Positions 7,112 to 60,623 of a stretch of DNA of 64,000 nt are shown here, in pieces. Position numbers and translations under genes: made by a program. Below the pieces are notes generated by a model. The model did no database searches, had not been told where the DNA came from, and saw only the letters and a program-made list of their open reading frames with translations. The stretch's first letter is position 1. Each line of letters starts with the position of its first letter. Source of the stretch: a virus; the IMG/VR virus record IMGVR_UViG_3300005471_000011, positions 32,001 to 96,000 of that record; one strand, written 5' to 3'.

Positions 7112-8119
7112 GTGGCAAAACAAATCACGTTCGCCCTGGGAACAGCGGGAAACCTGTCAGCGCGGACGTTGACGATCCGCGCCATGGTCAATGGGGACTA
7201 CACCGACCACCTGACCACCCAAGCGCTGGCGGGCACGGTCGAGGAAGCCACGGCGGTGATCCCGGACGACTTGAACTGTGAAGCGGTGCTGATCGACCGC
7301 CGCAGCGAGTTCACGATGGCACCGGTGGTGCTGCATTTCGTGACGTCTTCGCAGATTTACCGGGATGTTCAAAGCTCCGCCGCGCCGCGATCCATCAGCG
7401 CGGGCATGCTGCGGATCGTGGACGTGGAGGAGTTGAGCGAATCGTCGGCCAGCTCGCTATCGACAAGCACGCTGAGTTCGGTCAGCAGCAGCAGCACGAG
7501 CACTTTGAGCAGCAGCTCGACAAGTTCTGTCTCCAGTAGTTCGTCCAGCCTCAGTTCCGTTAGCTCTTCCAGCAGCACTCGCAGCTCACTCAGTTCCGTT
7601 AGTTCGTCTAGCTCTAGCCATTCGACGAGCAGCGTCTCAAGCCCCAGCTCGGCCAGCAGCAGCTCGACCTCTTCGGTGTCGAGCAGCAGCAGCAGCCGGT
7701 CCACGGCATCCAGCGTGTCCAGCAGTTCCACGAGCACGCTTACGAGTTCCAGCGTCAGCTCGTCCAGTACATCGACTGTGTCAAGCTCCAGCTCAAGCAC
7801 GACGCAGACGATCAGCAGCAAATCCACGCTGTCCAGCTCGACTCGCAGCAGCAGCTCGTCCGTTACCGCGTCGAGCTTGTCGAGTTCGAGCACTTCATCC
7901 GTGTCAAGCAGCAGCTCCTCGCGCAGCCGCTCCAGCGTCAGCACGGCATCGTCATCCTCAACAAGCAGCCCTTCCACCCTATCCTCGTCGTCGAGTTCTA
8001 CGTTCAGCACTGCCTCGTCCAGTTCGAGCAGCGCCTCGTCCAGTTCGAGCAGCGTTTCTTCGTCAAGTTCAAGTACATCGTCGCTCAGCTCATCTTCGAG
8101 CAGCGTCGGCGACCTGTAG
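7112..8119 (+). CDS. Ser/Thr-rich protein (about 105-aa N-domain plus about 220-aa Ser/Thr tract)
   Basis: GTG start preceded by AGGA; tract uses all six Ser codons. Confidence 0.75.
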   Translation: MAKQITFALGTAGNLSARTLTIRAMVNGDYTDHLTTQALAGTVEEATAVIPDDLNCEAVLIDRRSEFTMAPVVLHFVTSSQIYRDVQSSAAPRSISAGMLRIVDVEELSESSASSLSTSTLSSVSSSSTSTLSSSSTSSVSSSSSSLSSVSSSSSTRSSLSSVSSSSSSHSTSSVSSPSSASSSSTSSVSSSSSSRSTASSVSSSSTSTLTSSSVSSSSTSTVSSSSSSTTQTISSKSTLSSSTRSSSSSVTASSLSSSSTSSVSSSSSSRSRSSVSTASSSSTSSPSTLSSSSSSTFSTASSSSSSASSSSSSVSSSSSSTSSLSSSSSSVGDL

Positions 8120-8134
8120 CAAAGGAACCTAAGT

Positions 8135-8788
8135 ATGCCGATCCGCATCAACCTTCCCGCCGCAGCCCGCATGATCCAGCAGAAGTCCCCTGCGGAGTTG
8201 ACCGGCGTTTACGTCGCCGTCGCAACCAAGTGCAAGGAGCTGAAGCTCACTCCGGGCCGTCGCGACACGGTGGCACCGCAGCCGTCCACCGGGGAAGGCA
8301 ACATCAACTTCCGAACTCTGATCCAGTTCGCTGAATCAGTGGAGCCTCATCCGGAGAATGAGCCGGAGGCGCCGAAGATTCTGGAGCAGGACAAGCTGCG
8401 TGACGGCGACAGCCAAGAGGTAATCGACGCGAAGGCATCGACCCAGCAGCGCAAGACGCAGGATCAGAGACGATTCGAAGCGGCGAAGGCAGAACGCAAC
8501 GAGAACCACCGGGCGTTGCGGGTTCTGCTGGGAGCTTTGACGGCGCGGTTCACTACGGCCGGCATTCCGCTGCCGGAGATCCCCAAGACAGCAGCGGAAA
8601 TTGCTGCGGCCGATAAAGTCGCGGCCGACAAGAAAGCCGCTGATGACAAGGCAGCGGCCGATAAAGTCGCCGCGGAGAATGCTTCATCCCAGGTGCCGGC
8701 GCAGCAAATGAAAGCGCCGGCAGCGCCGCCCAAGGTTGGAGCACCGCCACAACCACCGGCAGGGCGCAGGGGTCCTCCTGTTGGCTAA
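8135..8788 (+). CDS. Hypothetical protein, Ala/Lys/Pro-rich C-terminus
   Basis: AAGGA RBS; AADK repeats. Confidence 0.65.
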   Translation: MPIRINLPAAARMIQQKSPAELTGVYVAVATKCKELKLTPGRRDTVAPQPSTGEGNINFRTLIQFAESVEPHPENEPEAPKILEQDKLRDGDSQEVIDAKASTQQRKTQDQRRFEAAKAERNENHRALRVLLGALTARFTTAGIPLPEIPKTAAEIAAADKVAADKKAADDKAAADKVAAENASSQVPAQQMKAPAAPPKVGAPPQPPAGRRGPPVG

Positions 8789-8855
8789 CGCACATTTCAT
8801 GGATGAGACGGCAGCCGCGGCCGGAAAACGCGGCATATTTTGAGAGCCAAGAGTC

Positions 8856-11834
8856 ATGCCGATTCCAAAACCCAACGACGGCGAATCCGAGTCCGACTTC
8901 CACGCACGCTGCATGGAAGCTATCGGCGGAGAATACGAGCCGGACCAAGCCAACGCGATCTGCTTTTCGCAGTATCGCGGCGACAAGCGGTCCGTGATGC
9001 TCTCGATGGTCAAGGGTCGCACGTCGGGCGAGTTCGGCTACGGCATCACCACGGCGGATCGGTATGTGGAGCAGGTGATCAAATCCTGCGGCGTGGAAGC
9101 CTCGCTGTTCAACGGCCCGGCGGCGCAGGTCGCGGCGGCGATGAAGCACGCGGCTGGCATGCTGGCGTTCTGCGGCAAGGACCAGCGCCAGGACAAGATC
9201 GAAACCGGCATGGCGGCGATGCGCAAGTTGATCGGCATGGAGCCGCCGGTGCACTCCATGATGGCAATCGTCCACCGGCTAACGACGCCGCGAGAGGACC
9301 GGGACGGCGACACGCTCCAGACCAAGGGCGCACGTCCCGACCCCAAGATGCCGTTCCTGTGGCAGCATGTGTCCACGATCCCCATCGGCAAGCTGGCGCG
9401 GGTGCTAGAGCACACGGAAGAAGTGCTGAAGATGGCGACCGTGCTCCTGGACTTGAACTCGCTGACATCAGATGTCGGCAAGCTGTTTGAGGCAGAGGCG
9501 CTGCGGTTCAGTCACGGGTTCATCCCGACCAACTTTGAGGAGCGCAAGGGCGGTCCGATGGCACGGTTCAACGTGCTGGAGTTCGATGTGGTCGAGGAGT
9601 CCGCCGTCAGCGTGCCTTCCAATGTGGACGCGGAAGTGGAGCTGTTCAGCCGAGGCAAGCTCTCCAGCGATCTGGTCAAGTCCCACGCGAAGTCGCTGTT
9701 CGACGCGCGTATCAAATCCATGCCAGTAACCGACAAGGCCAAGGCGATTTTCGAGAAGGAATCCAGCGGCAAGGGATTCCCTCGCTGTGAGGTCTGCGGG
9801 CAGATCGCCAAGCTGGAGGGCACCAAGCGATGCAAGGCGTGCCGCAGCGGCAAAAAGGAAACCAGCAACCTCGTCCGCAAGATGTTCGACATCGCGACCC
9901 AGCGAGTCGAACCGACGACGATGGAATGCGACTGGGCGGCGCGGTACATCGGCTGCTCGGTCAAGGACCTGCACATCCATTCCACGTCGGCGCGCGGGAT
10001 TATGGTGGGCGGATTTCTCAAGGGGCTGGAACTGGCATGCCAGGAATTTCAGTGCAGCGACACCCGCAACATCAAAGGCGAATCGGAGTCGCCGCCGGTC
10101 TTTGAAACCAAAGAGATCGACAGCAGCACGCGGCAGAACTTCCTGGTGGAAGGCATCCGATTCTGGCACGGCGAAGGCTATAAGATCGTCACGCGCGTGG
10201 AGCCGTACTGGGATTCCCAGCAGCTCGTCGTTTACGCCGAAGAGGGCGAGCAGGCGCAGAAAATCATCGACGATGCCTGGGAATGGCTGGCCAAGAACAA
10301 CCCGCTCAAGGGGCAGGCGTTCGCGCTGACGGGAAGTTGGATCAGCAAGAGCGGCATTGGCTGGGACGACGTGTTCCTGGAAAAGAAGATCGAGGATTCC
10401 CTCAAACGCACGGTGCGGGTCATCAATGAAAAAGGCATTGACGCTGCCAACCGCGGCCTCATTCTTAGTGGCCCACCGGGTACGGGAAAAACTTTGTCCG
10501 CGCGGGTCATGCTCAACGAGACGAAGAACACCACGTTCATCTGGGTTAGCCCCAAGGACTTTTATCGCGGCGGCGGCTTCATGGAGGCGTTCTCGCTGGC
10601 GCGCCAGCTTGCCCCGACGGTGCTGATGTTCGAGGACATCGACAACTGGATTGACCGGTACTCGGTGGACCTGATCAAAGCGGAGATGGACGGGCTGCAA
10701 GAGTCCACGGGCGTTGTAACGATCCTGACGACCAACTTCCCGGACCAGTTGCCGGCGGCGCTGATCGACCGACCCGGTCGTTTCCATGACGTGCTGGAAA
10801 TCCACTTGCCGTCCAAGGACGTGCGGTTGCGGATGCTCCAGAAGTGGGCTGCGGATGCCACTCTGGACGCTTTGGCGGCGATGGCAGAGGAGACGGAGGG
10901 CTACAGCGGGGCGCACGTGTATGAGTTGTGCAGCTTCGCCAAGGTGCTCAAGGACGAAGACGGCAGCACGCTCGATGAAGCACTGACCAAGGCGTTTGCC
11001 AAGGTTAAGGATCAGCGCGAACTGATCAATCAGAACCAACTTGCCGGCAGCAGCTACCGTCCAAGCCGCCGGGATATCACTGACTTGGTCGCTAAAGGCT
11101 GGACGCGAGAAGAACGAATCACCGAAGGCGGAATTCAATACCGCCTCACAAAAGGAGTGGCGGCAATGGACACCAAGATCGGCGATGTGCTGCCCATGAT
11201 CGGCCCCATCCCACATGAAGGGGAAGCAGCGGCTGATTTCCAGTCGCGCTGCATCCTCGATCCAACAATGCTTGGCAACTACCCGACGGTGTCGGACCGG
11301 GAGAGCGCCTGCCGAATTTTGTTCTCTCGCGGCGACGGCATCTTCGCGGCAGCCAAGCCAACGACCAAGGAAGTCGGCACGTGCAAGGAATGCAGCAAGG
11401 AGATGGAACTCAATCCCCAAGGCTTGTGCGCCGAGTGCGCCAGGAAACGCGACGCCGCCGGCTACGACGAGAGCGGCCAACCGAAGTCGGCACCGGTTCA
11501 GATCAAGGCAGGGCGCGTGCTGTCCAAGCGAAACATCGAGCGGCTCAGCGAAGCGCTCAAGCGGCACCAGGAAGGCATCGAGCGGATCAAGGGCGTGCTG
11601 GACGACGCCAACCCGACCGAAGAAGTCGCACCAACGGAGCCAGGTGCCAATGCACCGCTCGCCGGACCAGATCACGTGATGACCCAGGCGGTGCTGCTGG
11701 TCGCCGAGGACCGCGCCGCGCGGGACAAACTGCGCAAGGCCATCGATGCGTTCGATTTGGCGGACGAAGAGGAGCAGAAATCATCGGATTACGAATCACT
11801 GTTCGAAGAGGCGTTAGTTGCGGAAACGGCTTGA
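8856..11834 (+). CDS. HK97-type prohead protease fused to AAA+ ATPase and Zn-finger motifs
   Basis: Protease: DRDGD, FLWQH..IPIGK, FSHGF, EESAVSVPSN. ATPase: GPPGTGKT, LMFEDID, LTTN, DRPGRF, GYSGA. Two CxxC..CxxC pairs. Immediately upstream of the capsid gene. Confidence 0.85.
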   Translation: MPIPKPNDGESESDFHARCMEAIGGEYEPDQANAICFSQYRGDKRSVMLSMVKGRTSGEFGYGITTADRYVEQVIKSCGVEASLFNGPAAQVAAAMKHAAGMLAFCGKDQRQDKIETGMAAMRKLIGMEPPVHSMMAIVHRLTTPREDRDGDTLQTKGARPDPKMPFLWQHVSTIPIGKLARVLEHTEEVLKMATVLLDLNSLTSDVGKLFEAEALRFSHGFIPTNFEERKGGPMARFNVLEFDVVEESAVSVPSNVDAEVELFSRGKLSSDLVKSHAKSLFDARIKSMPVTDKAKAIFEKESSGKGFPRCEVCGQIAKLEGTKRCKACRSGKKETSNLVRKMFDIATQRVEPTTMECDWAARYIGCSVKDLHIHSTSARGIMVGGFLKGLELACQEFQCSDTRNIKGESESPPVFETKEIDSSTRQNFLVEGIRFWHGEGYKIVTRVEPYWDSQQLVVYAEEGEQAQKIIDDAWEWLAKNNPLKGQAFALTGSWISKSGIGWDDVFLEKKIEDSLKRTVRVINEKGIDAANRGLILSGPPGTGKTLSARVMLNETKNTTFIWVSPKDFYRGGGFMEAFSLARQLAPTVLMFEDIDNWIDRYSVDLIKAEMDGLQESTGVVTILTTNFPDQLPAALIDRPGRFHDVLEIHLPSKDVRLRMLQKWAADATLDALAAMAEETEGYSGAHVYELCSFAKVLKDEDGSTLDEALTKAFAKVKDQRELINQNQLAGSSYRPSRRDITDLVAKGWTREERITEGGIQYRLTKGVAAMDTKIGDVLPMIGPIPHEGEAAADFQSRCILDPTMLGNYPTVSDRESACRILFSRGDGIFAAAKPTTKEVGTCKECSKEMELNPQGLCAECARKRDAAGYDESGQPKSAPVQIKAGRVLSKRNIERLSEALKRHQEGIERIKGVLDDANPTEEVAPTEPGANAPLAGPDHVMTQAVLLVAEDRAARDKLRKAIDAFDLADEEEQKSSDYESLFEEALVAETA

Positions 11835-11900
11835 CGCCGCCCGCAGTGTTCCATAGACGGGCCGCTGCTGCGGCGATAGAACTGTAACCTTCCTAGGAGA

Positions 11901-14613: not shown

Positions 14614-14901
14614 ATGGACGGCGACCCGTTGCATTCTGAACAGCTAATGCGGCTGACCATCGCGGTTGAAAAACTCGCGAGCGAGGTCGCCAACCAGACC
14701 AGGGTGATTAATGATTCAACCCAAAAAATAGCCGAGATTGAGGAGCGGATTGCCGGCGAGAACGGCATATCAACCAGGTTGGCCGTTGGCGAGGATCGCT
14801 TGAAGCGGCTCAGCACGACGGTGTACGGGACGATTGCTGTGGTCGGGACGGAGTTCATTGGTTTCGTGTTCATTATCCTCGAAAGACTGCTCAAGCGATG
14901 A
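14614..14901 (+). CDS. Coiled-coil protein with C-terminal transmembrane helix (holin-like position and shape)
   Basis: Heptad-like N-part; hydrophobic VYGTIAVVGTEFIGFVFIIL. Confidence 0.55.
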   Translation: MDGDPLHSEQLMRLTIAVEKLASEVANQTRVINDSTQKIAEIEERIAGENGISTRLAVGEDRLKRLSTTVYGTIAVVGTEFIGFVFIILERLLKR

Positions 14902-15401
14902 CGATGTCTGAAAGCATTAACACAGACTCCGTCGCTTCCGTCATCGAGGAACTGAAGGGAATCAGGGCAGCGCTGCGAGGCGAGCGCAAGATCGGCGCCC
15001 TGCCCATCATGCTTCAGGATGTGCTGTCGAGCGTGCCGCTGCTGATCGTCGATATGGATAGCGGCAAAATCCTGTACGCGACGGAAGAAGCGGATGATCT
15101 GTTCGGCTACATCCCAGGCGAGTTAGCCGGCAAAGACTTGCACGTTTTGATCCCCAAGGAACTCCGGGATCGGCATCGTGAACATCTTCAGAAATACCGC
15201 GAGTGGCCTCGCAAACGCCGGATGGGGATATTCGGGATGGATTTAATGGGACTGCACCGGGATGGCCATACGTTTCATTTGGCGATTGGGCTCGTGCCGC
15301 GCGTCGTGGATGAGCAACGCATCGTCATCGCAACGATCTTCGACGCGGATACTTCCGTGGAACCATCGCTGCATTACGACGCGGGAGGGTTGAAGCATTG
15401 A
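14898..15401 (+). CDS. Stand-alone PAS domain protein
   Basis: ADDLFGY..GELAGKDLHVLIP..LRDRH...Y....R.MG...LMGLHRDGHTF..AIGL. Confidence 0.8.
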   Translation: MTMSESINTDSVASVIEELKGIRAALRGERKIGALPIMLQDVLSSVPLLIVDMDSGKILYATEEADDLFGYIPGELAGKDLHVLIPKELRDRHREHLQKYREWPRKRRMGIFGMDLMGLHRDGHTFHLAIGLVPRVVDEQRIVIATIFDADTSVEPSLHYDAGGLKH

Positions 15402-15631: not shown

Positions 15632-18600
15632 ATGCGGACAAAGCGAAAACTCATCTTCGTGCCGGCGGCAGCGGAAGGGCCTAGTAATTTCCCGTCTGGA
15701 GCTATTGGCATTTTTCTCTTAGGCGGTGGCAGCGGCGACACGATTCCTAATCTCGTCTCTGGTATATCTGACCTGACGCTCGTCGGCTCGGAAGACCCGC
15801 CCGACGACGCTTCGAATCCGCCAGGCAATCACGATGCCATAAGATTCGATGGCAAGTTGACGCTCAACTCCGGCATCGGACCAACCTACACGCATACCTT
15901 CCCGCTCGACTACACGAAGGGCACCTACGCGGTCAGCGAGCCATTTCCCAATACGTTCGGGAGTGGCGGGACGTGGGGAGTTAGGTTCCGCTCAGCGCCG
16001 TGGGTGTTTTACGGAGAAGGAGAGTACCTCCCGATGGCAAGTGCCGGACAGATGGGCATTTGCACTTTCCGGCCTTACGACATGGCTACCGAGAGTGAGC
16101 TGTACCCCAACATCGAGGACGGCGCGCGGTATCTTAGATTCATCCGGTATGATCCTACCCCCGGCCAGCTCTTTATGGTTGCTGGAGAGGGCAACCCGGA
16201 ACTCGGCCCGAACTCAGACAGGATCGACGCGGTTGACGCCTATCCTGACTACGGCATGAGCGACATGGACGTTGACCATATCGCTATCGTCTCGTTCACG
16301 CCTGAGTACGTAAAGCTTTACGTTGACAATGTGCTGGTTGGCACGACTACTCGTCAGACAGAGAACTACGAAACTGACTATTTAACGATCCAGCTTGGCC
16401 TTCACAACCTGATTCATTCTTCGGAGCGATGCTACTTCGACGGCGAGTTGAACTGGCTTGCCGTCTATGACAGAACGCTGACGGGCGATGCGACAAACGA
16501 AGGGGAAAACCCGACCGGAGAAATCAACGCTCTGTATGAGGCGATGGCCGCTGAGCCGGGCACGTATCCGACTTACGAGTCCATCGTCCTCCCGCACGAC
16601 ACGATTCCCAATCTAGCCGTCTCGGCTGACACCAAGGCCATAAGCAGCGGGCCGTGGTCTAGTTCTGCTACTTGGGATAACGGGCTGCCGGCTGCTGGCG
16701 ACACTTGGGGAATCTGCGCTGGGATCGTCGTTGACTATGACATGGGCAACGACACGACTCGCTATCGGGCGGGCGGTATCGCTCCCACAGGACGGTTGAG
16801 GTTTCCGCGAGACGCAGACAGCCAACTCTGGATTCAGCACCTGATGGAGTATTGGGACGAGGATAGCGGCAAGCTCGGCTGGCTGGACATGGGCACGGAG
16901 ACGAATCCCATCCAAGCAGCATTCACCTGCGAGACCATTATTCTCAATGAACCGCTGGAAACAGGAACAGCAGCGTCTCCCGGTGTTGACCCCAAGCAGT
17001 ACGGCAACGGTTTGATTTCTCTTGGCAAGTGGACGGCGAAAGGTAAGGAACGCACGCGGCTGCTGCGACTGGGTGCCGAGCCGCAGGCGACGGATACGAC
17101 GCTCACTCTCTCGGCGACTCCGACCGGCTGGGAGGACGGCGACGATCTTCTCATACCCGACAGCCGCCAGCTTGATTCCAGCACCTATCTAGGAAACTAT
17201 GCCTCACATTGGGAGATTCGGCAGCAGGCCAGTCGCAGCGGGACGGTGGTGACGCTTGACTCCGCTTTGAGCTACGACCATCCAGGCGGTGAGTCCAACT
17301 ACAGCGTCGGGCAAGGGACCGGTGAGGCGGACTTTCTGCCGCACGTCGCGAATCTGACGAGCAACGTCATTGTGCGGTCGGAGGACGGGACCGGAACTCG
17401 TGGGCATATCTTCGTGACGCATCGGGCACATCTTGATATCTGCGACATCCGAATCTCGCAGATGGGCCGGACGGCTAATGGGCCGGCGTCCAGCGGCACA
17501 CAGGGATTAAACAACACGATCCTCGGCAAGACTGTAACTGGGGCGACGAACGCCAGCCCAATCGTCGTCACGGTCTCCGACGACTTCACCGAACTGCGGA
17601 ACCTGCTCCACAATGGTGATGAGGTCTATATCTCTGGCGTCGGTGGCAACACGGCAGCCAACGGCACGTTCACTATCGCCAACGTAACGCTGGGGCTGTT
17701 CGTATATACGTTCGAGCTTGTCGGAACGACTGGGAACGGCGCATACACCAGCGGTGGAACTGTCAACCACATCGGCACGAATCAGATCGGCCGGTATGCC
17801 TTCCACGCTCACCACTTGTATGGACCCGTGAACGGCGTCGGTGACTTCTCGACCGAGACCGCTGACTTGGTATTGGAGGCGACAACAGCCACTGGCGACT
17901 CTATCTTGGCGGCCACCGGATCAGCGGGACCTGACCCAATCGACCTGACAGGCGTCCAGCGTCAGGGAAGGATCGAGCGGGTAGTGATCGACGATCCGTT
18001 GCCGGCCCCGCCTTCGGCCACGCTGCCGGCGTCGAAGTGGGGCATGACAGTCCACGGTACGGGCTACCTGGAAATCAAGGACTGCGTTGTTTTGCACTAT
18101 GCCGGTTCTGGAGGTGCCATTGAGGATGGCAGCGAGAAGCACAATGCATTCATCCGCGTCGCCAACTTTAGCTGCATTGGAGACGTGAGCGCCCGCGAGA
18201 CGGACGGTCGCTCCGGCACCGGCATCTTTGGCATCGGCTTCAACAACTTCTTCATCGACTGCGTGTCCGCCGGCTGCGCTGGCAAGTACAGCGGCATCGT
18301 CTCTGGTTCGGGCTATCTGCTCTTTGTTCCCCCGTCTTCTACAGCCAACACGCGCCAGCCGCTGTATCCGGGTGCGGACGTCCACGACGGCACGGAGGGC
18401 GTGGATTACGAGTTGGTCAACATCTTGGAACAGCCAATCGCTGCGTTCTATCGCAATGAGGCATACGGTGCCATCGCCGCAGCTATTGACATCTGGCACC
18501 TCGGCAGCGGTGGGTACAGCACGGTGGACGTGACGCCTACCGTGCTGCTGGAGTGCGTGAGTTGGCACGCCTGGGAAGAGGGTCTAGCGTTCCTCTACCC

Positions 18601-48740: not shown

Positions 48741-48952
48741 TATGCCCTCTTTGTCCCGGTAGGTTTCTTCGGCTTGTCCCAATAGGGGCTTTTGCAGTGC
48801 GGGCACACTCGCGGATGTTCGTCCGGTTTCCGCGGAACCCATTCGTGAGAACATCGCTCACAACGATACCCCGGCACGGTGAGTTTGATTTTCGCCATAG
48901 CCGGTATCTTACCAGATAATCAGTTATTTCAAAGGCAAATACTAGCCGGGGA

Positions 48953-50056: not shown

Positions 50057-50479
50057 TCAGAAATCGAAAGCATGCTCGTTCGCGCTGGTGCCAGAAGTAT
50101 CTCCAAGGAATACGCCAACGGCTCAGTCCAGGCGCTTAACTTTGTGATCATGTGTCCTGAGACGCAGGCACCACTTGGCGTGCGTTTGCCGGCTGACCAG
50201 GAAGCGGTTTTTCAAGTATTGAAAAAGGCGCGCAGCCCTCGCGCTCGCTGGCATCGCGGGTGGGAAGATAAAGTCCGCGAGCAAGCCAAGCGAACCGCCT
50301 GGAGGCTGATGTTCGACTGGGTAGCCGTGCAGCTCTCGCTGATAGAGATGAAGCAAGCGGAGCTAATGCAGGTGTTCTTGCCGTATTTGTGGGCTGGCAA
50401 GACGACGTTTTACGAGTCGATCAAGCAAAACAAATTTGCTGCGCTGAGCTATGAGGGCGAAAGGCCGAGCGAGCAATGA
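50057..50479 (+). pseudogene. 3' fragment of the IS-interrupted phage gene
   Basis: Continues the frame of 46000-46041; QAKRTAWR...DWV..QL...QVFLPY. Confidence 0.75.
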
Positions 50480-51294
50480 ACGCACGAGGCGTCCTGTATT
50501 ACAACATCGGCGACCGCTACGCCGTGCCGCTGGCGGTGTCCCTGATGACGCTGCGCGACTGGTACGCGGGTCCGGTGGCAATCGTCACGGACATGGCTGG
50601 TATCCCGTGGATTCGCAAGATGCTCAAGATTCCCGGCTTGCTGCCACTGGATATCATCCCCATGCTGCCGGAAAGCTCCTCCGAGCAGTGGCGCTATCTT
50701 GCCAAGCTCGAACTGCCGGAGCTATCACCGTTCGCCTCCACGGTCATGCTGGACGCGGACACGCTGGTCGTCGGGTCCATCGAGGAGTTGTGGCCCGACA
50801 TGAAATCCGGGGAAGTGGTCCTGACAAATCGTTCCAACGGCGCCACGGCTCACGTCAAGATGCGGCTGCGATGCCAGCAGTGGATTGATATCGCTCCGCT
50901 GCGCGCGAGGCGCGTGCGTTCCCAGCGGTTCAAGGTTGCCGCGATCAACACGGGCATCATGGCTTGGTCGCGCAACAGCTCGCCTTTCGTGCGCGAATGG
51001 TACCGGCTGGCGAGGCTCCGTCCGATCCACAGTTGCGACGAGATGGCGGCACAGCTCACCTATCCCGACTTCCCGCACAGGATTCTGGATTCCCGCTACA
51101 ATGCCAACGTGACCTACGACCGGGAGGACGTGCGAATCTGGCACGGGCCGCGGTCACAGTTCTGGAAGGCAGGCGGGCGCGGCAGGGCGCTGTGGACGCC
51201 TTATTTCCGGCGAGAACTGCCATTGCTGCGAGAGCTGCTGCCAACGGCGGCGTGGCTTGGTGGCTGGCTGGAAAGGGAAACAGGGAAAGCATGA
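50476..51294 (+). CDS. GT8-like glycosyltransferase, paralog of 43496-44407
   Basis: SPFASTVMLDADTL, AINTGI, CDE, YN, VRIWH. Confidence 0.75.
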   Translation: MNARGVLYYNIGDRYAVPLAVSLMTLRDWYAGPVAIVTDMAGIPWIRKMLKIPGLLPLDIIPMLPESSSEQWRYLAKLELPELSPFASTVMLDADTLVVGSIEELWPDMKSGEVVLTNRSNGATAHVKMRLRCQQWIDIAPLRARRVRSQRFKVAAINTGIMAWSRNSSPFVREWYRLARLRPIHSCDEMAAQLTYPDFPHRILDSRYNANVTYDREDVRIWHGPRSQFWKAGGRGRALWTPYFRRELPLLRELLPTAAWLGGWLERETGKA

Positions 51295-51899
51295 GCGGCA
51301 CCTCGGCGCAGCTTACGGCGGTCACGTGCGTATATTGGATGCACCGCTACAACTTTGAGCCGCGAACGATTCTGAACATCGGTATTGGCAAGACGTGTCC
51401 TGAGTTGGCGATCTGGCAATGGCTGCTGCCAAACGCGCAAATCCTTGGCGTTGATCCACGCTGGAGCCCGCGCGGCAACTGGAGCAGGGGCGGTGCCAAG
51501 CAGCTCAAGGTTGGCGTCGGGGACGGGACCAAGCCCACGGCGACTTACTGCGGCGATTGCCGGTCGGTCAAGTGCGAAAACCCAGCGCACACCGCGCACA
51601 AGTCCACCGCGACCATGACGACGATTGACCAGATCGTCGCGGACGAGAAACTCCAGCCGCCGTTTTTTATCTGGATGGACATTGACGGCGGGGAGATCGA
51701 CGCGATCCACGGTGCCAAGCTGACGCTGCCGCACGCGGGATACATGAACGTGGAGTTCTGCGACCACAAGCAGATTCCGGAGCACCGCGAGCAGTTGCAC
51801 TTGCTGCTAAACGCTCACAGCTTCGTCCTCATGTACGATCACAAGGCCGTGTCTCAGGACAGGCTTTATCGCAACCGCCGCTTCAAGATGCCAAAATGA
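51291..51899 (+). CDS. FkbM-like methyltransferase
   Basis: ILNIGIG, TTIDQI, FIWMDIDGGEIDAIHGA..TL, NVE; ATG at 51291. Confidence 0.65.
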   Translation: MSGTSAQLTAVTCVYWMHRYNFEPRTILNIGIGKTCPELAIWQWLLPNAQILGVDPRWSPRGNWSRGGAKQLKVGVGDGTKPTATYCGDCRSVKCENPAHTAHKSTATMTTIDQIVADEKLQPPFFIWMDIDGGEIDAIHGAKLTLPHAGYMNVEFCDHKQIPEHREQLHLLLNAHSFVLMYDHKAVSQDRLYRNRRFKMPK

Positions 51900-52087
51900 T
51901 CAAGGACGTGCTGACTCCCAAGGATGTTGCGAAGCTGACTGGCTTCAGCCAGAGCACCATCAAGAAATGGATGGATCGTGGCTTGCTTAAGGGCTGGCGC
52001 ATTCCCGGCTCGAACCACCGACGGTTCGACCGCGAGACCGTGCTGGCGTTCCTGCGCAGCAACGGGATTCCGGAACCTGCGCCATGA
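51896..52087 (+). CDS. Excisionase-like HTH_17 DNA-binding protein
   Basis: VLTPKDVAKLTGFSQSTIKKWMDRGLLKGWRIPGSNHRRF. Confidence 0.8.
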   Translation: MIKDVLTPKDVAKLTGFSQSTIKKWMDRGLLKGWRIPGSNHRRFDRETVLAFLRSNGIPEPAP

Positions 52088-52596
52088 TCCGCCTGGGGTT
52101 CACCCGCTACGAGTTGCCGGAGCTGATCGACCTGCAAGGCTACAAGCGCGCCGTCGAGGTCGGAATCAACCTTGGCCAGTTCAGCTATCATCTGCTCAAG
52201 TACTCCAAGCTGGAGCTGCTTGTCAGCGTGGACAGTTACCCAGGCAAGTACCGCAAGGCGATGCCGAGCGCCAAAAACTATTTGGCGCCGTTCGGGGCGC
52301 GGTCGCAGTTGTTGCGGCGATCCAGCGTGGACGCGGCAGCGACCGTCGCTAACGGATTCTTTGACTTCGTGTATATTGACGCGGCGCACGACTATGCCAG
52401 CGTTCATGCTGACATTGAGGCATGGGCGAGGACGGTTCGTCCGGGTGGGCTGCTCGCTGGCCACGACTACACGCCGGCGCACGCGGGCGTGATGCAGGCG
52501 GTGGACGAGTTCACGTCCAATTCAAACTGGACGCTTTTTTCGACGCGCGAGCTGTGGGCGAGTTGGATGTTCTTTGTGCCGGAGTCGGCTAGTTGA
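52084..52596 (+). CDS. Class I SAM methyltransferase (Methyltransf_24-like)
   Basis: VEVG...G.FS, FDFVYIDAAHDY, VRPGGLLAGHDY. Confidence 0.85.
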   Translation: MIRLGFTRYELPELIDLQGYKRAVEVGINLGQFSYHLLKYSKLELLVSVDSYPGKYRKAMPSAKNYLAPFGARSQLLRRSSVDAAATVANGFFDFVYIDAAHDYASVHADIEAWARTVRPGGLLAGHDYTPAHAGVMQAVDEFTSNSNWTLFSTRELWASWMFFVPESAS

Positions 52597-53554: not shown

Positions 53555-54470
53555 GCTCGTTTGTCGCGGATAGTTTAGGAGTGCCTTGTCCCGCATTGTT
53601 CGGGCGAGGCAGGCATGGTAAGTCGCGGCATGCCTAGTCGCTGTTTGGCAGGCATGTCCCGACGTGTTAGGGCAAGCTGCGGCACCGCGGGCTGTGTCAC
53701 GGCGCGGCAGGCATGTCCCGTTGGTCCGCTTCGGTCGGTATGGCACGGAGAGGTACGGCAGGCTTGACTAGTCCCGGAATGGTCGGTCGGTCATGGCAGG
53801 CATTACCCGTCACGCTTCGGTATGGCAAGACGCGGCAGGCAAGATTCGTCTCGGCAGGATTCGTCTCGGTTGGTTCTGGAATGGCATGTCAAGGTCTGGC
53901 AGGCCCGTCGGGTCTGGCCGTTGCTGGGCACGGTTTGCACGCGGTATGGCAGGCATGGCTGAGCGAGTCCCGTTGTGTTCCGGTCCGGCAGGAGCGGAAG
54001 GTTTCGGCGGGGTGTGGTAGGTCTCGGCAGGCTAGTATTGGAGCGTTTCGGATTGGTGAGGCACGGTTTCGCAGGCGAGCCAAGGCATGTCAGGTCCGGA
54101 CGATGAGCGGCTCGGCAGGCATGGAACGGCAAGTTGAGTTTGGACTAGTCGCGGTTCGGCAGGCGTGGAGCGTTCGGTTCGACATGTTAGGGTGCGGATC
54201 GTATGGTCCGCTACGGCAGGCACGTCGGGTCAGGACTGTGCGGAGCGAGTTCGGGCACGGTCAGACGCGGCAGGCCAGCCATCGCATGGCGCGTTTGGTC
54301 CTTGCAAGGCTATGCAGGTCCCGGCAGGCAGCGCGGGTCATGGTAAGGCAAGGCATGGTTCGTCGTCGCAGGCGAGGTTCGTCAAGTCCCGGTGGTAAGC
54401 GATTCGTCGCGGAGAGGTTTGGCAGGCGTGTCACGGAGAGTTCAGCAGTGGGTTTGTCAAGGCAGGCACG
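53555..54470 (+). repeat. Noncoding array 1: about 19 GGCAGGC-anchored units built of G-N-Y-N-N pentamers
   Basis: Anchors at 53608, 53647, 53706, 53757, 53795, 53834, 53898, 53948, 53987, 54026, 54070, 54114, 54158, 54215, 54269, 54323, 54367, 54421, 54461; 13 of 18 spacings equal 4+5n. Confidence 0.85.
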
Positions 54471-54503
54471 GTTTTATTTCTTTCACAATCAGGAGATCGT
54501 TTT

Positions 54504-55007
54504 ATGGTGACCGAGATCAATGATGCAGTACGCAATGAAATGCTGGCGCTGCTCGATGACGACGGGCTGCTCAAGCCTGAAGCCGTCGTTGCGGCGGCAG
54601 CCAATGAAGCCAGCAGCATGCACAAGTTCTTCACTTGGGACGATGCTAAGGCAGCCGCCAAGTGCCGGCTGGAAGAGGCGCGTGCTCTGATCCGCAACGT
54701 CGAATGCCAGTACGATGAAAACTGGCTCAAGGGTCCGGTCCCGGCGTTCGTCAGCTTGGCGAATGATCGTGGACGCGAGGGCGGCGGCTATCGCTCCACG
54801 CCAGCGGTGCTGACCAACAATCAGCTTCGCGCGGAGCTGATCGCTACCGCCAAGAAGGAACTGGAGTCCTGGGCGCGACGGCACAAGGTGCTTCGCGGCT
54901 ATGTGCTCAACGTGCTGGTCGCCAGCGGGATTGAGCCGACTGGCATTTTTTCAGAGTCCGAGATTGGCTTGACAGTTACAGGAGGAGGCGATCAGGAAGC
55001 GGCATAG
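54504..55007 (+). CDS. Accessory protein between the two arrays
   Basis: AGGAG RBS; GLLKPEAVVAAA...SSMHKFFTWDD..AA..CRLEEARALIR, GGGYR. Confidence 0.75.
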   Translation: MVTEINDAVRNEMLALLDDDGLLKPEAVVAAAANEASSMHKFFTWDDAKAAAKCRLEEARALIRNVECQYDENWLKGPVPAFVSLANDRGREGGGYRSTPAVLTNNQLRAELIATAKKELESWARRHKVLRGYVLNVLVASGIEPTGIFSESEIGLTVTGGGDQEAA

Positions 55008-55988
55008 CAGGTTAGGCACGGATCGTTATGACTGGCCCCGACTAGGTTTGTCATGCGCGGCTTGGCAGGCGAGATTTGCCCTGTTCAGGATCGTCGTGTC
55101 GCGGCGGCGCAGGCAGCGAGGGTCTGGTCGATGCTCGGCAAGGTCCGTCACGGCAGGCCGGGCTAGGCAAGTCTGATTCTGACACGGCAGTTCCCGGCAG
55201 TCGCGGTTAGTCTTGCTGCGACCAGTTAGGGCAAGGCAGGCACGGCCCGTGCCTGGATCGTGCCATAACGAACCGCGTCGGAACACGAACCGCGGCAGGC
55301 CAGACTGGTCAGGGGACGGCTCGAAAGGCACGGCACGATCCGTCATGGTGTGGCAGGCACGGCTAGTCAGGACTGCGCACGATCCGTTTTGGTCCGGCAG
55401 GCGCGACGCGACGTGATCTGTCTGGGAACGTCGTGACGAGGTCTGGCAGGTACGTCTGGTTGGGGCGCGATCCGTCATGGTATGGCGCGGCAGGCTAGGC
55501 ACGGCAGGACGCGGCAGGGCGCGACGCGGATGATCCCGGCAGGCAAGGTGTGTCGAGGCGAGGTTGATCGCGGTAAGATCGTGGCAGGCGAGGCATGTCC
55601 GGTCAGCGACTGGCATGCTGAGGCGGGTCGCGGCAGGGCGGCTTGGCAGGCGTGTTTTGGTCAGCCTCGGTGTGGCTTGCTTTGGCAGGCGCGGTTAGAC
55701 TGGTTTCGTCGCGACTAGGCACGGCAGGCACGTCTTGACTAGGCTGGGAGCTGTAGGTCGCGTTTTGGCTGGGCAGGCAGGTCTCTGCATGGTCCGGACG
55801 GAAAGGCTCGGCTCGGCAGGCACGCAATGTCACGGCACTGCGAGGTCAGCTATGGCGCGGAAGGGCAGGCATGTCACGAACCGTCAGCGCCCGGTTTGGC
55901 GAGTCGGGTCGCGGCAGGTTAGTCCAGTCAAGGACAGGTCAGGCATGCTTCGGTTCGGCAGGCAAGGCGTGGCATGAAAGTCCTGCCG
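55006..55988 (+). repeat. Noncoding array 2: about 21 GGCAGGC-anchored pentamer units
   Basis: Anchors at 55006, 55064, 55108, 55152, 55196, 55235, 55294, 55352, 55396, 55445, 55489, 55538, 55583, 55645, 55684, 55723, 55772, 55815, 55864, 55913, 55957; 15 of 20 spacings equal 4+5n. Confidence 0.85.
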
Positions 55989-56001
55989 ATGAAAGGAAAT
56001 C

Positions 56002-56847
56002 ATGAACTGGAAATCTCCGCCGGCAGACCAGTCTAAAGTCTGGCTGAACAAGTCTTTAGAAATTCAGATATTACTCGCGTGCAACTGGTCGTGTGTTAGT
56101 TGCGATCAGTTCAGCCAGTTCTCTAAGTTCGCCTGGGTCAAGAAGGGCACGATGAGTTTGGAGCAGATCGCGCACTTCTGCGCCGAGATGCGCGCCGGCA
56201 ATTTCTACTTCGGTCGGATTCGGCTGGTCGGAGGTGAGCCGACGATCCATCCTCGCTTCGGAGAGATCGTCGGCATGCTTCGCGAGGAGTTGATCGACAA
56301 CGGCCACGTAGCGGTCCTGGAGGTTGTCACCAACGGTTCGCACCCGGAGAAGATCAAGCCGGTGGCGCACCTGATCAACCGCGTGCGCGTCAGTGATGAT
56401 AACGACAAGCAAAAACATCACACGGCGAACCTGATTGCCACGCCGGCATCACTTGGCTACCAAGGAAAGCGGTGCAACCAGCCGGAGCATTGCGGCTGGT
56501 CTTTGAGCTATTATGGGTTTGCGCCTTGCAGCTCTGCCGGTGGAATCATGCGGCTGCGCGACCTGATGTCAGAGCACCAGCGAACCAGCCTTCCGCAGGT
56601 CAAAGGCACCGAGGCCAACTGGCCGAAGTTGCAGAATCTTTGCGACCAGTGCTACCATGCATTGCGTAGCGAGGACAAAATCAAGTCCGGCACGTCGGAC
56701 CCATCCAGGAACATGCCCAGCGAAGAAGCTGCAGTCCACGTCAACAAGTGGGCGGGCGGTCACAAGCCCGACTGGAAAATCTACGGGCAGGAAGCCAATG
56801 AAAATCCCGCTCATGGCGACGCGCTACGACCTGCCGGCGCTGTTTGA
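56002..56847 (+). CDS. Radical SAM protein
   Basis: CNWSCVSC, GGEPTIHP, VTNG, C-terminal Cys cluster (C..C, PC, CDQC). Confidence 0.85.
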   Translation: MNWKSPPADQSKVWLNKSLEIQILLACNWSCVSCDQFSQFSKFAWVKKGTMSLEQIAHFCAEMRAGNFYFGRIRLVGGEPTIHPRFGEIVGMLREELIDNGHVAVLEVVTNGSHPEKIKPVAHLINRVRVSDDNDKQKHHTANLIATPASLGYQGKRCNQPEHCGWSLSYYGFAPCSSAGGIMRLRDLMSEHQRTSLPQVKGTEANWPKLQNLCDQCYHALRSEDKIKSGTSDPSRNMPSEEAAVHVNKWAGGHKPDWKIYGQEANENPAHGDALRPAGAV

Positions 56848-57322
56848 CGCGCTGAAGTACCGGGTCGGCGCGGAGATTGGCGTTGACCACGGCTATTTCT
56901 CACGGCACCTGCTGGCATCGTCCAGGCTAGATCGTCTGTACTCCGTGGATTCCTGGCAGGGTAAGTTCGGCAAGTGCATCGCGGACGCCAAGCATTACCT
57001 CGCGGAGTTCGGGCATCGGTCGGAGATCATCCACCGCAGCGCGTCCCAGGCAGCGGCATCGCTGTCCGACAACAACGTGCGGCTGGACTTCGCGTATATT
57101 GACGCTTCCCATCGGGAGCAATCGGTAGCATTGGACATGCAGGACTGGGCACCGTTGGTCAAGCCGGGCGGGTGCCTGTGCGGGCATGACTACTGCGACC
57201 AGCCTATGACTGGGGTAATCCAGGCGGTGGACGGATTCGCGGCGGAGCGTGGGTTGCCGGTGTTCGTCACTTCCGAGCCGTGGGCGTCATGGCTAATCTT
57301 TATGCCGGAGCAAGCAGCATGA
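56798..57322 (+). CDS. Class I SAM methyltransferase, close paralog of 52084-52596
   Basis: TRYDLP, AEIGV..GYFS, LDFAYIDASH, VKPGGCLCGHDY, WASW. Confidence 0.85.
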   Translation: MKIPLMATRYDLPALFDALKYRVGAEIGVDHGYFSRHLLASSRLDRLYSVDSWQGKFGKCIADAKHYLAEFGHRSEIIHRSASQAAASLSDNNVRLDFAYIDASHREQSVALDMQDWAPLVKPGGCLCGHDYCDQPMTGVIQAVDGFAAERGLPVFVTSEPWASWLIFMPEQAA

Positions 57323-58077
57323 GCATCACCGTCGTTCGCGCCCTCTGGGGCGATATGGAAATGGTCACGCACGCCAAGGCGCAGACCGACGTCCGCGCGT
57401 GCCTGGAGCGCAATCAAGACCTTGGCGCGCCGCTCAAGGTGTTCTGCTTCGGGCAGAAGAACCTCCAGTTCCTCAACCGCTTCGGCGTGTCGGCAACGAT
57501 GCTGGACACGAACCCCGTCGTGGATTGGAACAAGACGAAAGCGCGATCCACGCTGGACCAGGGGCGCGTCAACTACGGGCTGTCCCAGTGGCGCCACAAG
57601 CTGGAGGCGGTCCTCGCTGGGCTCGCCGGCAGCCCTGGCGGCGTCATCTGGCTGGACTGGGATACCGTGGTCAATAAGCCAATCGACGCGGCGCTGCTCT
57701 CGTCCCTCGCTTCCGGTCCTCGCTTCCAGGGACGCATGCGGCAATATCACACGCCGCATGCTCCCTGGCGAGAGGCGGAGTTCGGCGTGCGCCGCGTCTA
57801 TCACGGCGGCTGCTGGTATGTGCGAGATCCCCAGGTCATTCACAAGGCAATCGGCGTCCAGGCGAAGCGCTACCCGAAAATGCCAGACGAGACGGCGCTC
57901 TCATGGTACGTGGACTACAAAATGCTCGACGGTCCCAAGCTTCCCGAAGCGCACCGGGAAGCCAAGATCGACAATCCGCTGCTGTACTCGACCAAGGAGA
58001 ACGTGATCCCGTCAGATGCCAAGCCGTATTTTTCCGAGGGCGCTGTCCGGCACGTCGGAAGGGAAAAGAAGCGGTAG
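57319..58077 (+). CDS. GT-A-like glycosyltransferase
   Basis: WRHKL, VIWLDWDTVV (DxD), GG, PDE; ATG at 57319. Confidence 0.55.
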   Translation: MSITVVRALWGDMEMVTHAKAQTDVRACLERNQDLGAPLKVFCFGQKNLQFLNRFGVSATMLDTNPVVDWNKTKARSTLDQGRVNYGLSQWRHKLEAVLAGLAGSPGGVIWLDWDTVVNKPIDAALLSSLASGPRFQGRMRQYHTPHAPWREAEFGVRRVYHGGCWYVRDPQVIHKAIGVQAKRYPKMPDETALSWYVDYKMLDGPKLPEAHREAKIDNPLLYSTKENVIPSDAKPYFSEGAVRHVGREKKR

Positions 58078-58824: not shown

Positions 58825-58840
58825 ACACAAGGGAAAGATA

Positions 58841-59368
58841 ATGAACGCCATAATGATTGACCCAAAGCGGATATGGAAAACGTCAGACTTGGATTACTGC
58901 GTTGCCGAGGAATTGTTCGGCTGGAAGTGGCTCGCATATCTCGGAATTCCGGTAAGGGACACGCCGGGCTATCCGAACAAGGTTCTTGTGCGTCAGTTTT
59001 TCAGCCCCGGCATCGAGGCCAATAAGCATTGGCTGGACTACTTCGCGCATAAAGGAGGAGGATTTCAGCCAGCAACCGGCGATGAGCCACTGAGTTATCG
59101 GTATTGCTCCTCGCAGGGACCGGAGATGGTTCCGTATTTTAGCGGCCACCAAGAGGCGATGAGGGCGATGGAGGAGGAGTTGGACCGCCGCAATCTGTTT
59201 GACGATTACCAAAAGCATATTGCGGCGCAGCTTCGATGCCTCAATGACGACGAAACATTCGACGTGAAAAAAGTTAGGAACGCTGATTGCGAAACGCGAT
59301 GCATCGCAGCGCTGGCAGCGGTCGGCAGTAAGTATGTGACGCAGAATCCACCAGACGACGCGGCTTAA
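58841..59368 (+). CDS. Hypothetical phage protein (ABA-sandwich-like)
   Basis: LDYCVAEELFGW...VPYFS...CIAAL. Confidence 0.5.
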   Translation: MNAIMIDPKRIWKTSDLDYCVAEELFGWKWLAYLGIPVRDTPGYPNKVLVRQFFSPGIEANKHWLDYFAHKGGGFQPATGDEPLSYRYCSSQGPEMVPYFSGHQEAMRAMEEELDRRNLFDDYQKHIAAQLRCLNDDETFDVKKVRNADCETRCIAALAAVGSKYVTQNPPDDAA

Positions 59369-59374
59369 CAAATC

Positions 59375-59908
59375 ATGGAAGGTGCGACTAGAGAAGCGGT
59401 AATGGATCATCCGCCAGTCCGAGATAATTGGTTTCAAGCCGTCCGTAGAGCCTTCAGCGCGCAGGTCAAGCCGTTTGCCGGCAAGCCGATCACCTACGTC
59501 GAAACGGGCTGCTGGTGCGGAGCCTCTGCGGAGTGGGTCTGCCAGAATCTGCTGACGCACCCAGATGCCTGCGGCTATGGCATCGACCCGTGGGTATCGA
59601 TGGGCGGCAAGCACGACCAGAAACGCATGGATGAGATCGCGGCGTATGCTGACTTCGTGCTGGCGTTCCCGCATTTGAAGGTCGGGTCACTGGTCATCTG
59701 GGACGACTACGGTATCGCGCTGCGCAAGCCGGACCATCCGATCCCTGACGTAGCGGCGGCGGTGGAGTCGATCATGCACTCATTCAAGATATTCCTGGAG
59801 CAGACCGGGCAGGGCAAGCAGTTCTACGCGCGAGTGGTGCGCAAACCGGAGCTGGGGCGGTATATTGGTCCCGAAGAAATTCTGCAAGGAGCACGCGATG
59901 CCGGTTGA
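59375..59908 (+). CDS. SAM methyltransferase-like protein, apparently with internal in-frame deletion
   Basis: YVETGCWCGAS, GIDPW and D..LAF..LKVG.LVIWDDY are present, but the central IDG.H segment is missing. Confidence 0.6.
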   Translation: MEGATREAVMDHPPVRDNWFQAVRRAFSAQVKPFAGKPITYVETGCWCGASAEWVCQNLLTHPDACGYGIDPWVSMGGKHDQKRMDEIAAYADFVLAFPHLKVGSLVIWDDYGIALRKPDHPIPDVAAAVESIMHSFKIFLEQTGQGKQFYARVVRKPELGRYIGPEEILQGARDAG

Positions 59909-60623
59909 AGTGCCGCCGCTGGAGTTGACGCCCGGCGAGTATTCTTACTCCCACGATTGGTTCGAGCGGGACTACGGCTCCAAGCCGCACCTGAAGCGAG
60001 AAAGCACTCGGCAGCTCTACGAGCGGCTGCTGCTGCCGCAGAAGAACAAGATTCGCCGGATACTTGAAATAGGAATTTCCGAGGGCCGCAGCGTCGTCTG
60101 GTTCCTGCAAACAATGCAACCAACTGAATGGCTGGGAATCGATCCTTGGTTACCGGGGCGTTGGGAAACTTATCAGCCGGAGCATCGGCGCCGAAGGTTC
60201 TGGCACAACATGGGCGTTCTTGCTGGGGTCCAAGAACTCGTTGGCTTTCCACGCAAGGCAGATTACGGACTGCCTCGCGAAACATTCCGGCTACTCGATT
60301 GCCACTGCGCCGTCGCCTGGGCGAGGAGCCAGGAATATCTTCAGCACCAATACATACAGGACTACGGCAAGGAGAAATTCGACCTGGTCATTATCGACGG
60401 ATTACATCATGGATGGGGGGCGCTTACAGACGCGGTGCTCTCGTTCGGCATCCTGCGCAACGGCGGGTTGATCATCTTTGACGACACCCATCGTCGTTGG
60501 CAGCACGGCAAGGCGCACGTCCACGAGGCGGTCAACGGCTTTCACATGGGCTTTGAAGGATGGGTGAGACGCGAATTCGAGAACGGCCGACAAACTTGGC
60601 TGCGTAAAATCAGGGATACGTAA
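59898..60623 (+). CDS. Class I SAM methyltransferase (Methyltransf_24-like)
   Basis: YSHDWF, ILEIGISEGRS, GIDPW, FDLVIIDGLH, GGLIIFDD. Confidence 0.85.
   Translation: MPVEVPPLELTPGEYSYSHDWFERDYGSKPHLKRESTRQLYERLLLPQKNKIRRILEIGISEGRSVVWFLQTMQPTEWLGIDPWLPGRWETYQPEHRRRRFWHNMGVLAGVQELVGFPRKADYGLPRETFRLLDCHCAVAWARSQEYLQHQYIQDYGKEKFDLVIIDGLHHGWGALTDAVLSFGILRNGGLIIFDDTHRRWQHGKAHVHEAVNGFHMGFEGWVRREFENGRQTWLRKIRDT

Follow-up and report, generated by a model that had tools for sequence, protein, structure and literature searches.

Serine-tailed proteins of the structural module and a linked sugar-transferase cassette: a candidate virion O-glycosylation system in an uncultured phage

The sequence considered here (the window) is a stretch of 64,000 nucleotides, bases 32001-96000 of the IMG/VR record IMGVR_UViG_3300005471_000011, a viral contig of 104,107 bp from an uncultured phage, with a completeness of ~83% (CheckV estimate) and a G+C content of 59%. 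From position 46 to about 46,000 nearly all genes are found on the + strand, and matches to PHROG and Pfam families reveal a normal head-to-tail gene order that runs to 36449. We discuss two features of this region: a set of proteins in the head and tail gene block that carry long tracts of serine and threonine, and a cassette of putative sugar-modifying enzymes beginning with a transferase, here called T, which adjoins the last of the serine-tailed genes. Genes are named by their first base, and their coordinates are collected in Table 1.

Using a criterion of at least 60% Ser plus Thr over 30-residue windows, a six-frame scan of the whole contig located nine tracts in seven + strand open reading frames (ORFs), all inside the head and tail gene block; the rest of the 104,107-bp contig and the - strand contain no further tracts. 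A first-pass annotation of this DNA had listed six such genes in the structural region and about a thousand potential acceptor residues. All six were recovered together with a seventh, ORF 4748-5083, and the estimate proved accurate, since the tracts total 1,320 residues, among them 832 Ser and 149 Thr. Individual tracts are 62-301 residues long in the six ORFs named earlier and 52 in the seventh. The major capsid protein (11901) has no Ser tail according to the window scan.

All six serine codons are used within the tracts (AGC 282, TCG 161, TCC 133, AGT 103, TCA 88, TCT 65). Across them the serine frame alone is open, the other five frames being full of stops or unrelated residues, and Tandem Repeats Finder detects just three short two-copy repeats in their DNA. 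These observations rule out a frame artefact or a DNA slippage repeat as the origin of the tracts, and from the same mixture of codons, single open frame and near absence of tandem repeats we infer that the composition is selected or maintained at the protein level.

The serine-rich proteins share a layout in which a folded N-terminal domain is followed by the tract, which in 34029 forms a stalk between two domains. At eight of the nine tract starts two to four Asp or Glu residues are found within the five preceding positions, also on carrier domains that are not homologous; the eight tracts start at 4904, 7436, 19870, 21898, 22459, 27649, 34581 and 36291 (for example GRHDDEE-SSSS, VEDEE-SSSS and PQEEE-SS). 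The acidic lead-in may be a recognition or priming signal, and the peptide GRHDDEESSSSSSSS, which includes the acidic residues, is a candidate acceptor for T.

Three of the proteins (27106, 34029 and 35745) share a paralogous domain of ~175 residues, with 29-37% pairwise identity, the C-terminal GRHD(D/E)EE of which runs directly into the serines. The family of this carrier domain comprises 109 clusters; ~90 of these end in the acidic junction (GRHDDDE or RHDDDE) and a poly-Ser tail that varies in length and sequence, and a few full-length members end exactly at the junction and are tail-less. Its match in PHROGs is to one unannotated family, phrog_22694. With the neck-terminator-like gene right upstream of it and the chaperone and tape measure genes downstream, gene 27106 occupies the slot of the major tail protein, and in a relative (L075) the same carrier domain is located directly before chaperone-like ORFs and a tape measure. 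Judging from the position of the tract genes among those for portal, protease, capsid, adaptor, neck, tape measure and tail tip, the Ser-tract proteins are probably late proteins that form part of the virion.

The start codon of T overlaps the stop codon of the Ser-tail gene 35745 as ATGA. Homologues of T form at least 297 clusters, none of which carries a Pfam domain. When a profile of 56 homologues was compared with the PDB, the sole matches were CstII-type sialyltransferases (E 0.009); a nucleotide-loop motif GGPS (G83, P84, S85) and the residues G234, D236 and Y245 are invariant in the 56 family members, and both the GGPS and a GxDF..YAF motif align to CstII. The AlphaFold2 (AF2) model of T has a mean predicted local distance difference test score (pLDDT) of 94. 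In a VIA comparison the best match of this model is Maf 5mu5, with a Z score of 13.0, a root-mean-square deviation of 4.0 over 201 residues and 13% identity in the structural alignment, followed by the MptE HPPK (an MptE-like pterin kinase, 10.2), CstII/Cst-I (~9) and GT29 sialyltransferases (7-9); Foldseek ranks CstII first and includes Maf among its matches. Because the structure matches Maf best and the MptE-like Pfam model does not match the sequence, we regard T as a new sequence family in the Maf/GT42/GT29 fold class. Glycosyltransferases of this class use ulosonic acids activated with cytidine monophosphate (CMP) as donors. Maf enzymes are cytoplasmic and O-glycosylate Ser and Thr of flagellin with CMP-activated ulosonic-type sugars before the filament is assembled (PMC4065374).

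An enzyme of the type that activates such a sugar is encoded at 3965. Its best five NCBIfam models, matched over the full length, are all cytidylyltransferases for 3-deoxy-D-manno-octulosonate (Kdo; 2e-51), with PseF far behind at 6e-9 and 35.9 bits, and its 13 best PDB matches are all KdsB. The kdsB gene of the first-pass annotation is thus upheld, though the scores remain below the curated KdsB cut-offs (174.4 bits against 193 for NF003952, 125 against 155 for TIGR00466); we file the protein as KdsB-like, and the predicted sugar could be Kdo. No homologue of KdsA, NeuB or SIS (KdsD) was found in the contig, from which it follows that the phage encodes the activation step alone.

Of the approximately six glycosyltransferase-like genes proposed at first, four are supported (36446, 43496, 44440 and 50476), and 41814 and 57319 are to be taken as leads. 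A GT8 profile built from 28 relatives, including 50476, matches glycogenin (6.6e-6), with an invariant D-x-D (D95, D97). In the PDB, the profile of the 44440 family finds GT-A enzymes in each of its seven best matches (E 0.003 at best), namely TarP, TarS, chondroitin synthase and heparosan synthase; D137 and D139 are invariant. In the 41814 family K-x-D-x-D is invariant (K122, D124, D126); its profile finds no PDB match even at E 10, its members have no meaningful Pfam match, and in four loci (L045, L056, L059, L073) a 41814-like gene and a GT8 domain form a fusion. Direct Pfam and NCBIfam scans returned nothing for 36446, 39472, 41787, 44404, 45383, 50476 and 57280. The seven or so methyltransferases of the earlier list resolve into six that do not act on DNA (2918, 50964, 52084, 56657, 59865 and, weakly, 59375), the seventh being an N6 DNA methylase on the - strand (46098); the cupin (40385) and the radical S-adenosylmethionine (SAM) enzyme (56002) are present by Pfam. 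Enzymes of the Maf/GT42-fold, GT8, GT2-like, FkbM and Methyltransf_24 families are typical of glycan modification and less so of DNA modification.

Three genes interrupt the cassette: an HNH endonuclease (42638-43180, -), the 918-aa N6 DNA methylase of restriction-modification type (46098-48854, -) and a DDE transposase (49021-50028, +). They look like later insertions; in relatives the genes of the cassette adjoin one another. Directly after T a KapD/DEDD-type 3'-5' exonuclease gene (37486-38019) overlaps the T stop, again as ATGA, and is the last in the long run of + strand genes, after which the coding strand changes; the relatives lack such a gene at this position.

Viral contigs were scanned with the profile of T, which yielded 74 loci. 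Among the neighbours within 10 kb of T are a 41814-like gene (in 40 loci), GT8 (38), a 44440-like gene (29), Methyltransf_24 (28) and the cupin (23), and the usual order is T, cupin, 41814-like, GT8, 44440-like. Ser/Thr tracts on the same strand number 78 (7,576 residues), versus 12 small ones (452 residues) on the opposite strand. The typical layout is that of the present phage: at 7-9 kb upstream of T there is a gene for a carrier domain plus tail (230-290 residues), and just upstream of T a larger gene whose tract is internal. The full-flank set comprises the 51 unique loci in which the upstream sequence reaches at least 8 kb, and in 36 of these a same-strand tract is found beside T (26 of the 30 loci with two or more cassette genes, 10 of the 21 others).

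The presence or absence of T was also scored from the side of the carrier domain, at loci found with a four-sequence alignment of tail-less forms. T is present in all nine tract-bearing carrier loci for which the downstream sequence extends to 9.4 kb or more; in one of these (L082) it lies just past the end of the locus on the same contig, where it is visible in L022. Both tract-free carrier loci of comparable reach (L076 and L103) lack T and the cassette. The nominal Fisher p for this contrast is ~0.02, and it may reflect one or two evolutionary events, since the tail-less relatives form a single subgroup. The co-occurrence of Ser tracts and glycosyltransferase clusters that the first-pass annotation had proposed to check among related phages is borne out by both comparisons as an enrichment.

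The linkage extends to genomes with other structural genes. In viral T loci that contain neither the carrier domain nor other structural homologues, there are 0.117 tracts per kb at distances up to 2.5 kb from T versus 0.033 per kb at distances over 5 kb. When prokaryote genomes were scanned, 53 loci were found, 52 of them with a scorable T match, nearly all in metagenome-assembled genomes (MAGs) of Planctomycetota and Verrucomicrobiota and some on contigs of 0.1-1.9 Mb; the corresponding densities are 0.165 per kb near T versus 0.032 per kb far from it, the far flanks being a conservative control that comes from the same clade and so is not independent. Many of the MAG loci are arranged differently, with a tract gene downstream of T that contains two tracts of ~70 residues. 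On a 1.9-Mb contig of a Phycisphaeraceae MAG (L159:9851-12036), for instance, the gene next after a T homologue encodes a Ser/Gly-rich protein of 439 aa with a Hint/intein-like core; the pair belongs to a prophage-like tail region, where a tape-measure-like gene precedes it and a methyltransferase is its neighbour, and the same layout is found in L139, L140, L143, L155 and L157. The proximity of T to Ser-tract genes is thus not confined to a single gene order or genomic context. Because the prokaryote T loci are nearly all from Planctomycetota or Verrucomicrobiota, these phyla probably include the hosts of the phages.

We consider O-glycosylation of the poly-Ser tails by enzymes of the phage to be the best explanation of these data, with a rough probability of 0.55. 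The scheme would run as follows. Late proteins of the head and tail block would provide folded anchor domains with long disordered, Ser-dominated tails or stalks, and in the cytoplasm of the infected cell phage enzymes would O-glycosylate the tail serines. Priming would most likely fall to T, the gene of which is coupled in translation to that of the last Ser-tail protein. As donor T would probably use a CMP-activated ulosonic acid, plausibly CMP-Kdo made by the KdsB-like enzyme from host Kdo, a source suggested by the lack of any Kdo or nonulosonate synthase in the phage. Extension of the glycan could be the work of the GT8 pair, the GT2-like enzyme and the two candidate GT-A enzymes, and its tailoring that of the Methyltransf_24 and FkbM methyltransferases, perhaps with the cupin and the radical SAM enzyme; the particle would thereby acquire mucin-like bottle-brush appendages, on its tail and probably on the neck or head too.

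A more specific version, in which T takes Kdo, or a closely related 3-deoxy-ulosonic acid, from CMP-Kdo and attaches it straight to the serines that follow the acidic lead-in, with a methylated glycan on top, such that phages infecting the PVC (Planctomycetes-Verrucomicrobia-Chlamydiae) group wear a mucin-like glycocalyx, is tentative and in our view rather doubtful. We know of no report of protein O-Kdo-sylation, and no paper was found in the literature that describes the pairing of poly-Ser phage proteins with a sugar-transferase cassette.

The mucin-like, methylated glycan coat envisaged at first pass is partly supported, in that all the genes listed for it are present and the cassette is conserved beside tract genes. 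Several findings weigh against glycosylation of the virion. The linkage is not universal, 15 of the 51 full-flank T loci being tract-free, which makes the coupling an enrichment and no rule, and to this must be added the possible common origin of the tail-less subgroup. On a 52-kb MAG contig labelled Akkermansia muciniphila (L127, L174, L175) T is accompanied by GT8, 41814-like, 57319-like and methyltransferase genes, yet this contig contains no poly-Ser tract and no carrier domain; its assembly amounts to 4.6 Mb with an uneven G+C content of 56-67%, and the bin may be mixed. In L075 the carrier protein is tail-less, yet GT8 and methyltransferase genes are located in the head module. A KdsB homologue is present in two of the five long relatives, inside the cassette downstream of T, and was not found in the other three. 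The fold of T does not prove a protein acceptor, because it is common to glycolipid sialyltransferases and a pterin kinase; no aligned counterpart of the catalytic His of CstII was identified in T, T has no Pfam or NCBIfam match, and a search of the whole contig with PF01973 (MptE-like, DUF115) at E up to 1 returned nothing. The AF2 model of the carrier domain (pLDDT 81) is a beta-sandwich with non-specific matches of jelly-roll or cupin-like type (Z at most 7.7), and no tail-tube protein is among the structural matches listed for it. Finally, tblastn found neither T nor the carrier domain in 50,697 GenBank phage records, so that the clade is wholly uncultured.

The tract-free T loci and the arrangement in L075 also speak for the strongest of the alternatives, in which the tracts are unmodified or host-modified disordered spacers (entropic bristles), the cassette and the KdsB-like enzyme remodel the host envelope (core of the lipopolysaccharide (LPS), O-antigen or capsule), for example for superinfection exclusion, and the adjacency is a matter of synteny in one phage group. 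Phage kdsB and glycosyltransferase genes are usually read as such envelope-modifying auxiliary genes (PMC12801897; bioRxiv 10.64898/2026.09.14.751636), and CstII-type enzymes, which have the same fold as T, act on lipo-oligosaccharide. Synteny in one group is, however, difficult to reconcile with T adjoining tract genes in a different gene order in lineages with no further structural genes in common, or with the absence of T from relatives without tracts. That T is translationally coupled to a Ser-tail gene where the late structural operon ends likewise counts against this alternative, and the best structural match of T is the protein-glycosylating Maf, above CstII. On balance we judge remodelling of the host envelope to be possible and, all told, unlikely.

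It is improbable that the tracts are instead phosphorylated, acylated or similarly modified, or are cleaved off during assembly, the sugar enzymes being aimed at a different target. The acidic run before eight of the nine tract starts could signal recognition or processing by another enzyme, and a metzincin-like protease gene is present in the accessory region (58078); no kinase or acyltransferase was found among the scanned ORFs, a scan short of every ORF, and the cross-genome linkage is specific to T and the transferase cassette. Glycosylation of phage DNA with hypermodified bases to evade restriction, which phage glycosyltransferases often perform (reviewed in PMC12619734) and which the restriction-modification-type gene nearby (46098) might suggest, is very improbable, because no thymidylate synthase or hydroxymethylase homologue was found in the 104-kb record, the cassette is located after the tail genes and away from the replication genes, and its enzyme families point to a glycan.

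Glycosylation of the poly-Ser tails would have parallels in several known systems. CstII and Cst-I (CAZy GT42) are the sole characterised proteins to which the T family is linked by sequence, and they use CMP-ulosonic acid donors; they differ in that their acceptors are sugars of lipo-oligosaccharide, and T has ~75 extra N-terminal residues and further insertions. As here, the genes of Maf enzymes (Magnetospirillum magneticum 5mu5; Aeromonas caviae Maf1, PMC4065374) are linked to those of the acceptor and of a CMP-sugar synthetase. Maf, in contrast, modifies a few Ser and Thr residues in a folded flagellin domain rather than poly-Ser tails, and the Maf-linked synthetases are PseF, NeuA or LegF, whereas the present enzyme is KdsB-like (for the 8-carbon Kdo) and no nonulosonate synthase was found.

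Virion glycosylation as such is already known from mycobacteriophages, as cited in PMC12619734. According to that account, glycosyltransferases of phages Che8, Corndog and Myrna decorate C-terminal extensions of capsid and tail-tube subunits (Freeman et al. 2023, Cell Host Microbe). The C-terminal Ser tail on the protein in the major-tail-protein slot (27106) may correspond to these extensions. The mycobacteriophage enzymes belong to other families and the hosts are Actinomycetota, here probably members of the PVC group; the acceptors here would be poly-Ser tracts of 50-300 residues on seven proteins, and the capsid protein is tail-less.

The tracts also resemble the serine-rich repeat (SRR) adhesins in their very long Ser-dominated regions of low complexity and in the dedicated transferases encoded nearby. 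SRR proteins are primed by GtfA/GtfB and built of short dipeptide-like repeats. The tracts differ in that they have no regular DNA repeat, are located on proteins of a phage structural module and are linked to a Maf-fold enzyme; no SecA2/Asp or GtfA/B-type match was found among the scanned ORFs, again short of every ORF. SRR adhesins of Gram-positive bacteria, with their Ser/Thr-rich disordered regions in streptococci, are dense O-glycan acceptors (PMC6973325, PMC12041528), and these bacterial proteins are exported via the accessory Sec system (PMC6973325).

If virion glycosylation is true for this phage, dense mucin-like glycosylation of particles would be a widespread trait in a large, wholly uncultured group of phages from the environment and of prophage-like elements in Planctomycetota and Verrucomicrobiota, rather than a curiosity of mycobacteriophages. 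It would run on an uncharacterised transferase family (at least 297 clusters with no Pfam model) and on an acceptor design of anchor domain, acidic junction and poly-Ser run, a testable enzyme and acceptor pair for protein glycoengineering. Many "hypothetical" phage genes would gain a function, and phage kdsB, along with similar "auxiliary metabolic genes" that are usually assigned to remodelling of host LPS, would invite a different interpretation.

Table 1. Genes of the window, with the serine-tract proteins first, then the transferase and other cassette or sugar-related genes, then other genes
Feature	Position	Strand	Basis or remark
Small protein, 52-aa Ser/Thr tract	4748-5083	+	ATG immediately after the kdsB-like stop codon
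100-aa domain, then 234-aa Ser/Thr tail, head gene block	7112-8119	+	Homologues in L018 and L030 likewise Ser-tailed
180-aa domain, then 82-aa Ser/Thr tract	19294-20118	+	
830-aa protein: 165-aa domain, then Ser/Thr tracts of 131, 168 and 301 aa	20929-23421	+	
Carrier domain (~175 aa, beta-sandwich) and 88-aa Ser tail	27106-27873	+	Major-tail-protein slot
Carrier-domain paralogue, 202-aa Ser stalk, 200-aa C-terminal domain	34029-35741	+	After tail-tip genes
Carrier-domain paralogue and 62-aa Ser tail	35745-36449	+	Stop overlaps T start (ATGA)
T, Maf/GT42-fold transferase, family absent from Pfam	36446-37489	+	Homologue profile, AF2 model, VIA, Foldseek
Methyltransf_24 SAM methyltransferase	2918-3613	+	Pfam PF13578, E 6e-12; just upstream of kdsB-like gene
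KdsB-like cytidylyltransferase (CMP-Kdo synthetase type)	3965-4747	+	Pfam CTP_transf_3, 1.5e-30, above cut-off
Cupin (WbuC / mannose-6-P-isomerase C-terminal type)	40385-40834	+	Pfam/NCBIfam; directly after T in relatives
Candidate GT-A transferase, conserved cassette protein	41814-42641	+	Atlas lead to GT6, score 0.94
GT8 glycosyltransferase	43496-44407	+	Pfam GT8 4.5e-5, 23.6 bits against cut-off of 24.3
GT2-like GT-A glycosyltransferase	44440-45264	+	Family profile; no Pfam match
Second GT8 paralogue	50476-51294	+	35% identity to 43496 in family alignment; matches the same ORFs in relatives
FkbM-family methyltransferase	50964-51899	+	Pfam PF05050, 2.7e-7; TIGR01444; real start probably after 51294
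Methyltransf_24 methyltransferase	52084-52596	+	Pfam 5e-16
Radical SAM enzyme	56002-56847	+	Pfam 4.8e-10; NCBIfam matches weak, mixed in subfamily
Methyltransf_24 methyltransferase	56657-57322	+	Pfam 2.2e-17
Candidate GT-A (GT8 / Nucleotid_trans-like) transferase	57319-58077	+	Lead: Atlas feature score 0.97; structure TM 0.65-0.68 to GT8 / PF03407 clusters
Methyltransf_24, weak match	59375-59908	+	Pfam 3.5e-6, N-terminal motif alone
Methyltransf_24 methyltransferase	59865-60623	+	Pfam 5.4e-13
Portal fused to MuF-like domain	46-2604	+	PHROG/Pfam
Protease-AAA fusion, 992 aa, prohead-protease position	8856-11834	+	PHROG: head-protease-type matches and AAA ATPase region
Major capsid protein	11901	+	PHROG/Pfam
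Head-tail adaptor	23810	+	PHROG/Pfam
Head-completion protein, weak match	25280	+	PHROG/Pfam
Neck terminator, weak match	26459	+	PHROG/Pfam
Tape measure protein	29131	+	PHROG/Pfam; tail-tip genes follow, to 36449
DnaB helicase (62032) and initiator with iteron-like repeats	61-63.5 kb		

A few further genes of the window deserve mention. Within the head gene block a PAS-domain protein is encoded at 14898-15401, and the major capsid protein has no tblastn match among the GenBank phages. A 1,218-aa protein (15632-19288) shows matches to LamG, G8 and CEMIP beta-helix domains, which are polysaccharide-binding or depolymerase-like, and two Ser-tract genes follow right after it. The GC skew reaches 0.20 at 54001-56000, where the ORFs of 53713-55616 have no family match. 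In the replication region, tandem repeats of 23 nt (2.8 copies) and 15 nt (2.5 copies) are found at 61600-61704, inside an HTH_36 ORF (61205-62032) directly upstream of the DnaB gene; these resemble a replication origin of the iteron type that is embedded in the initiator gene.

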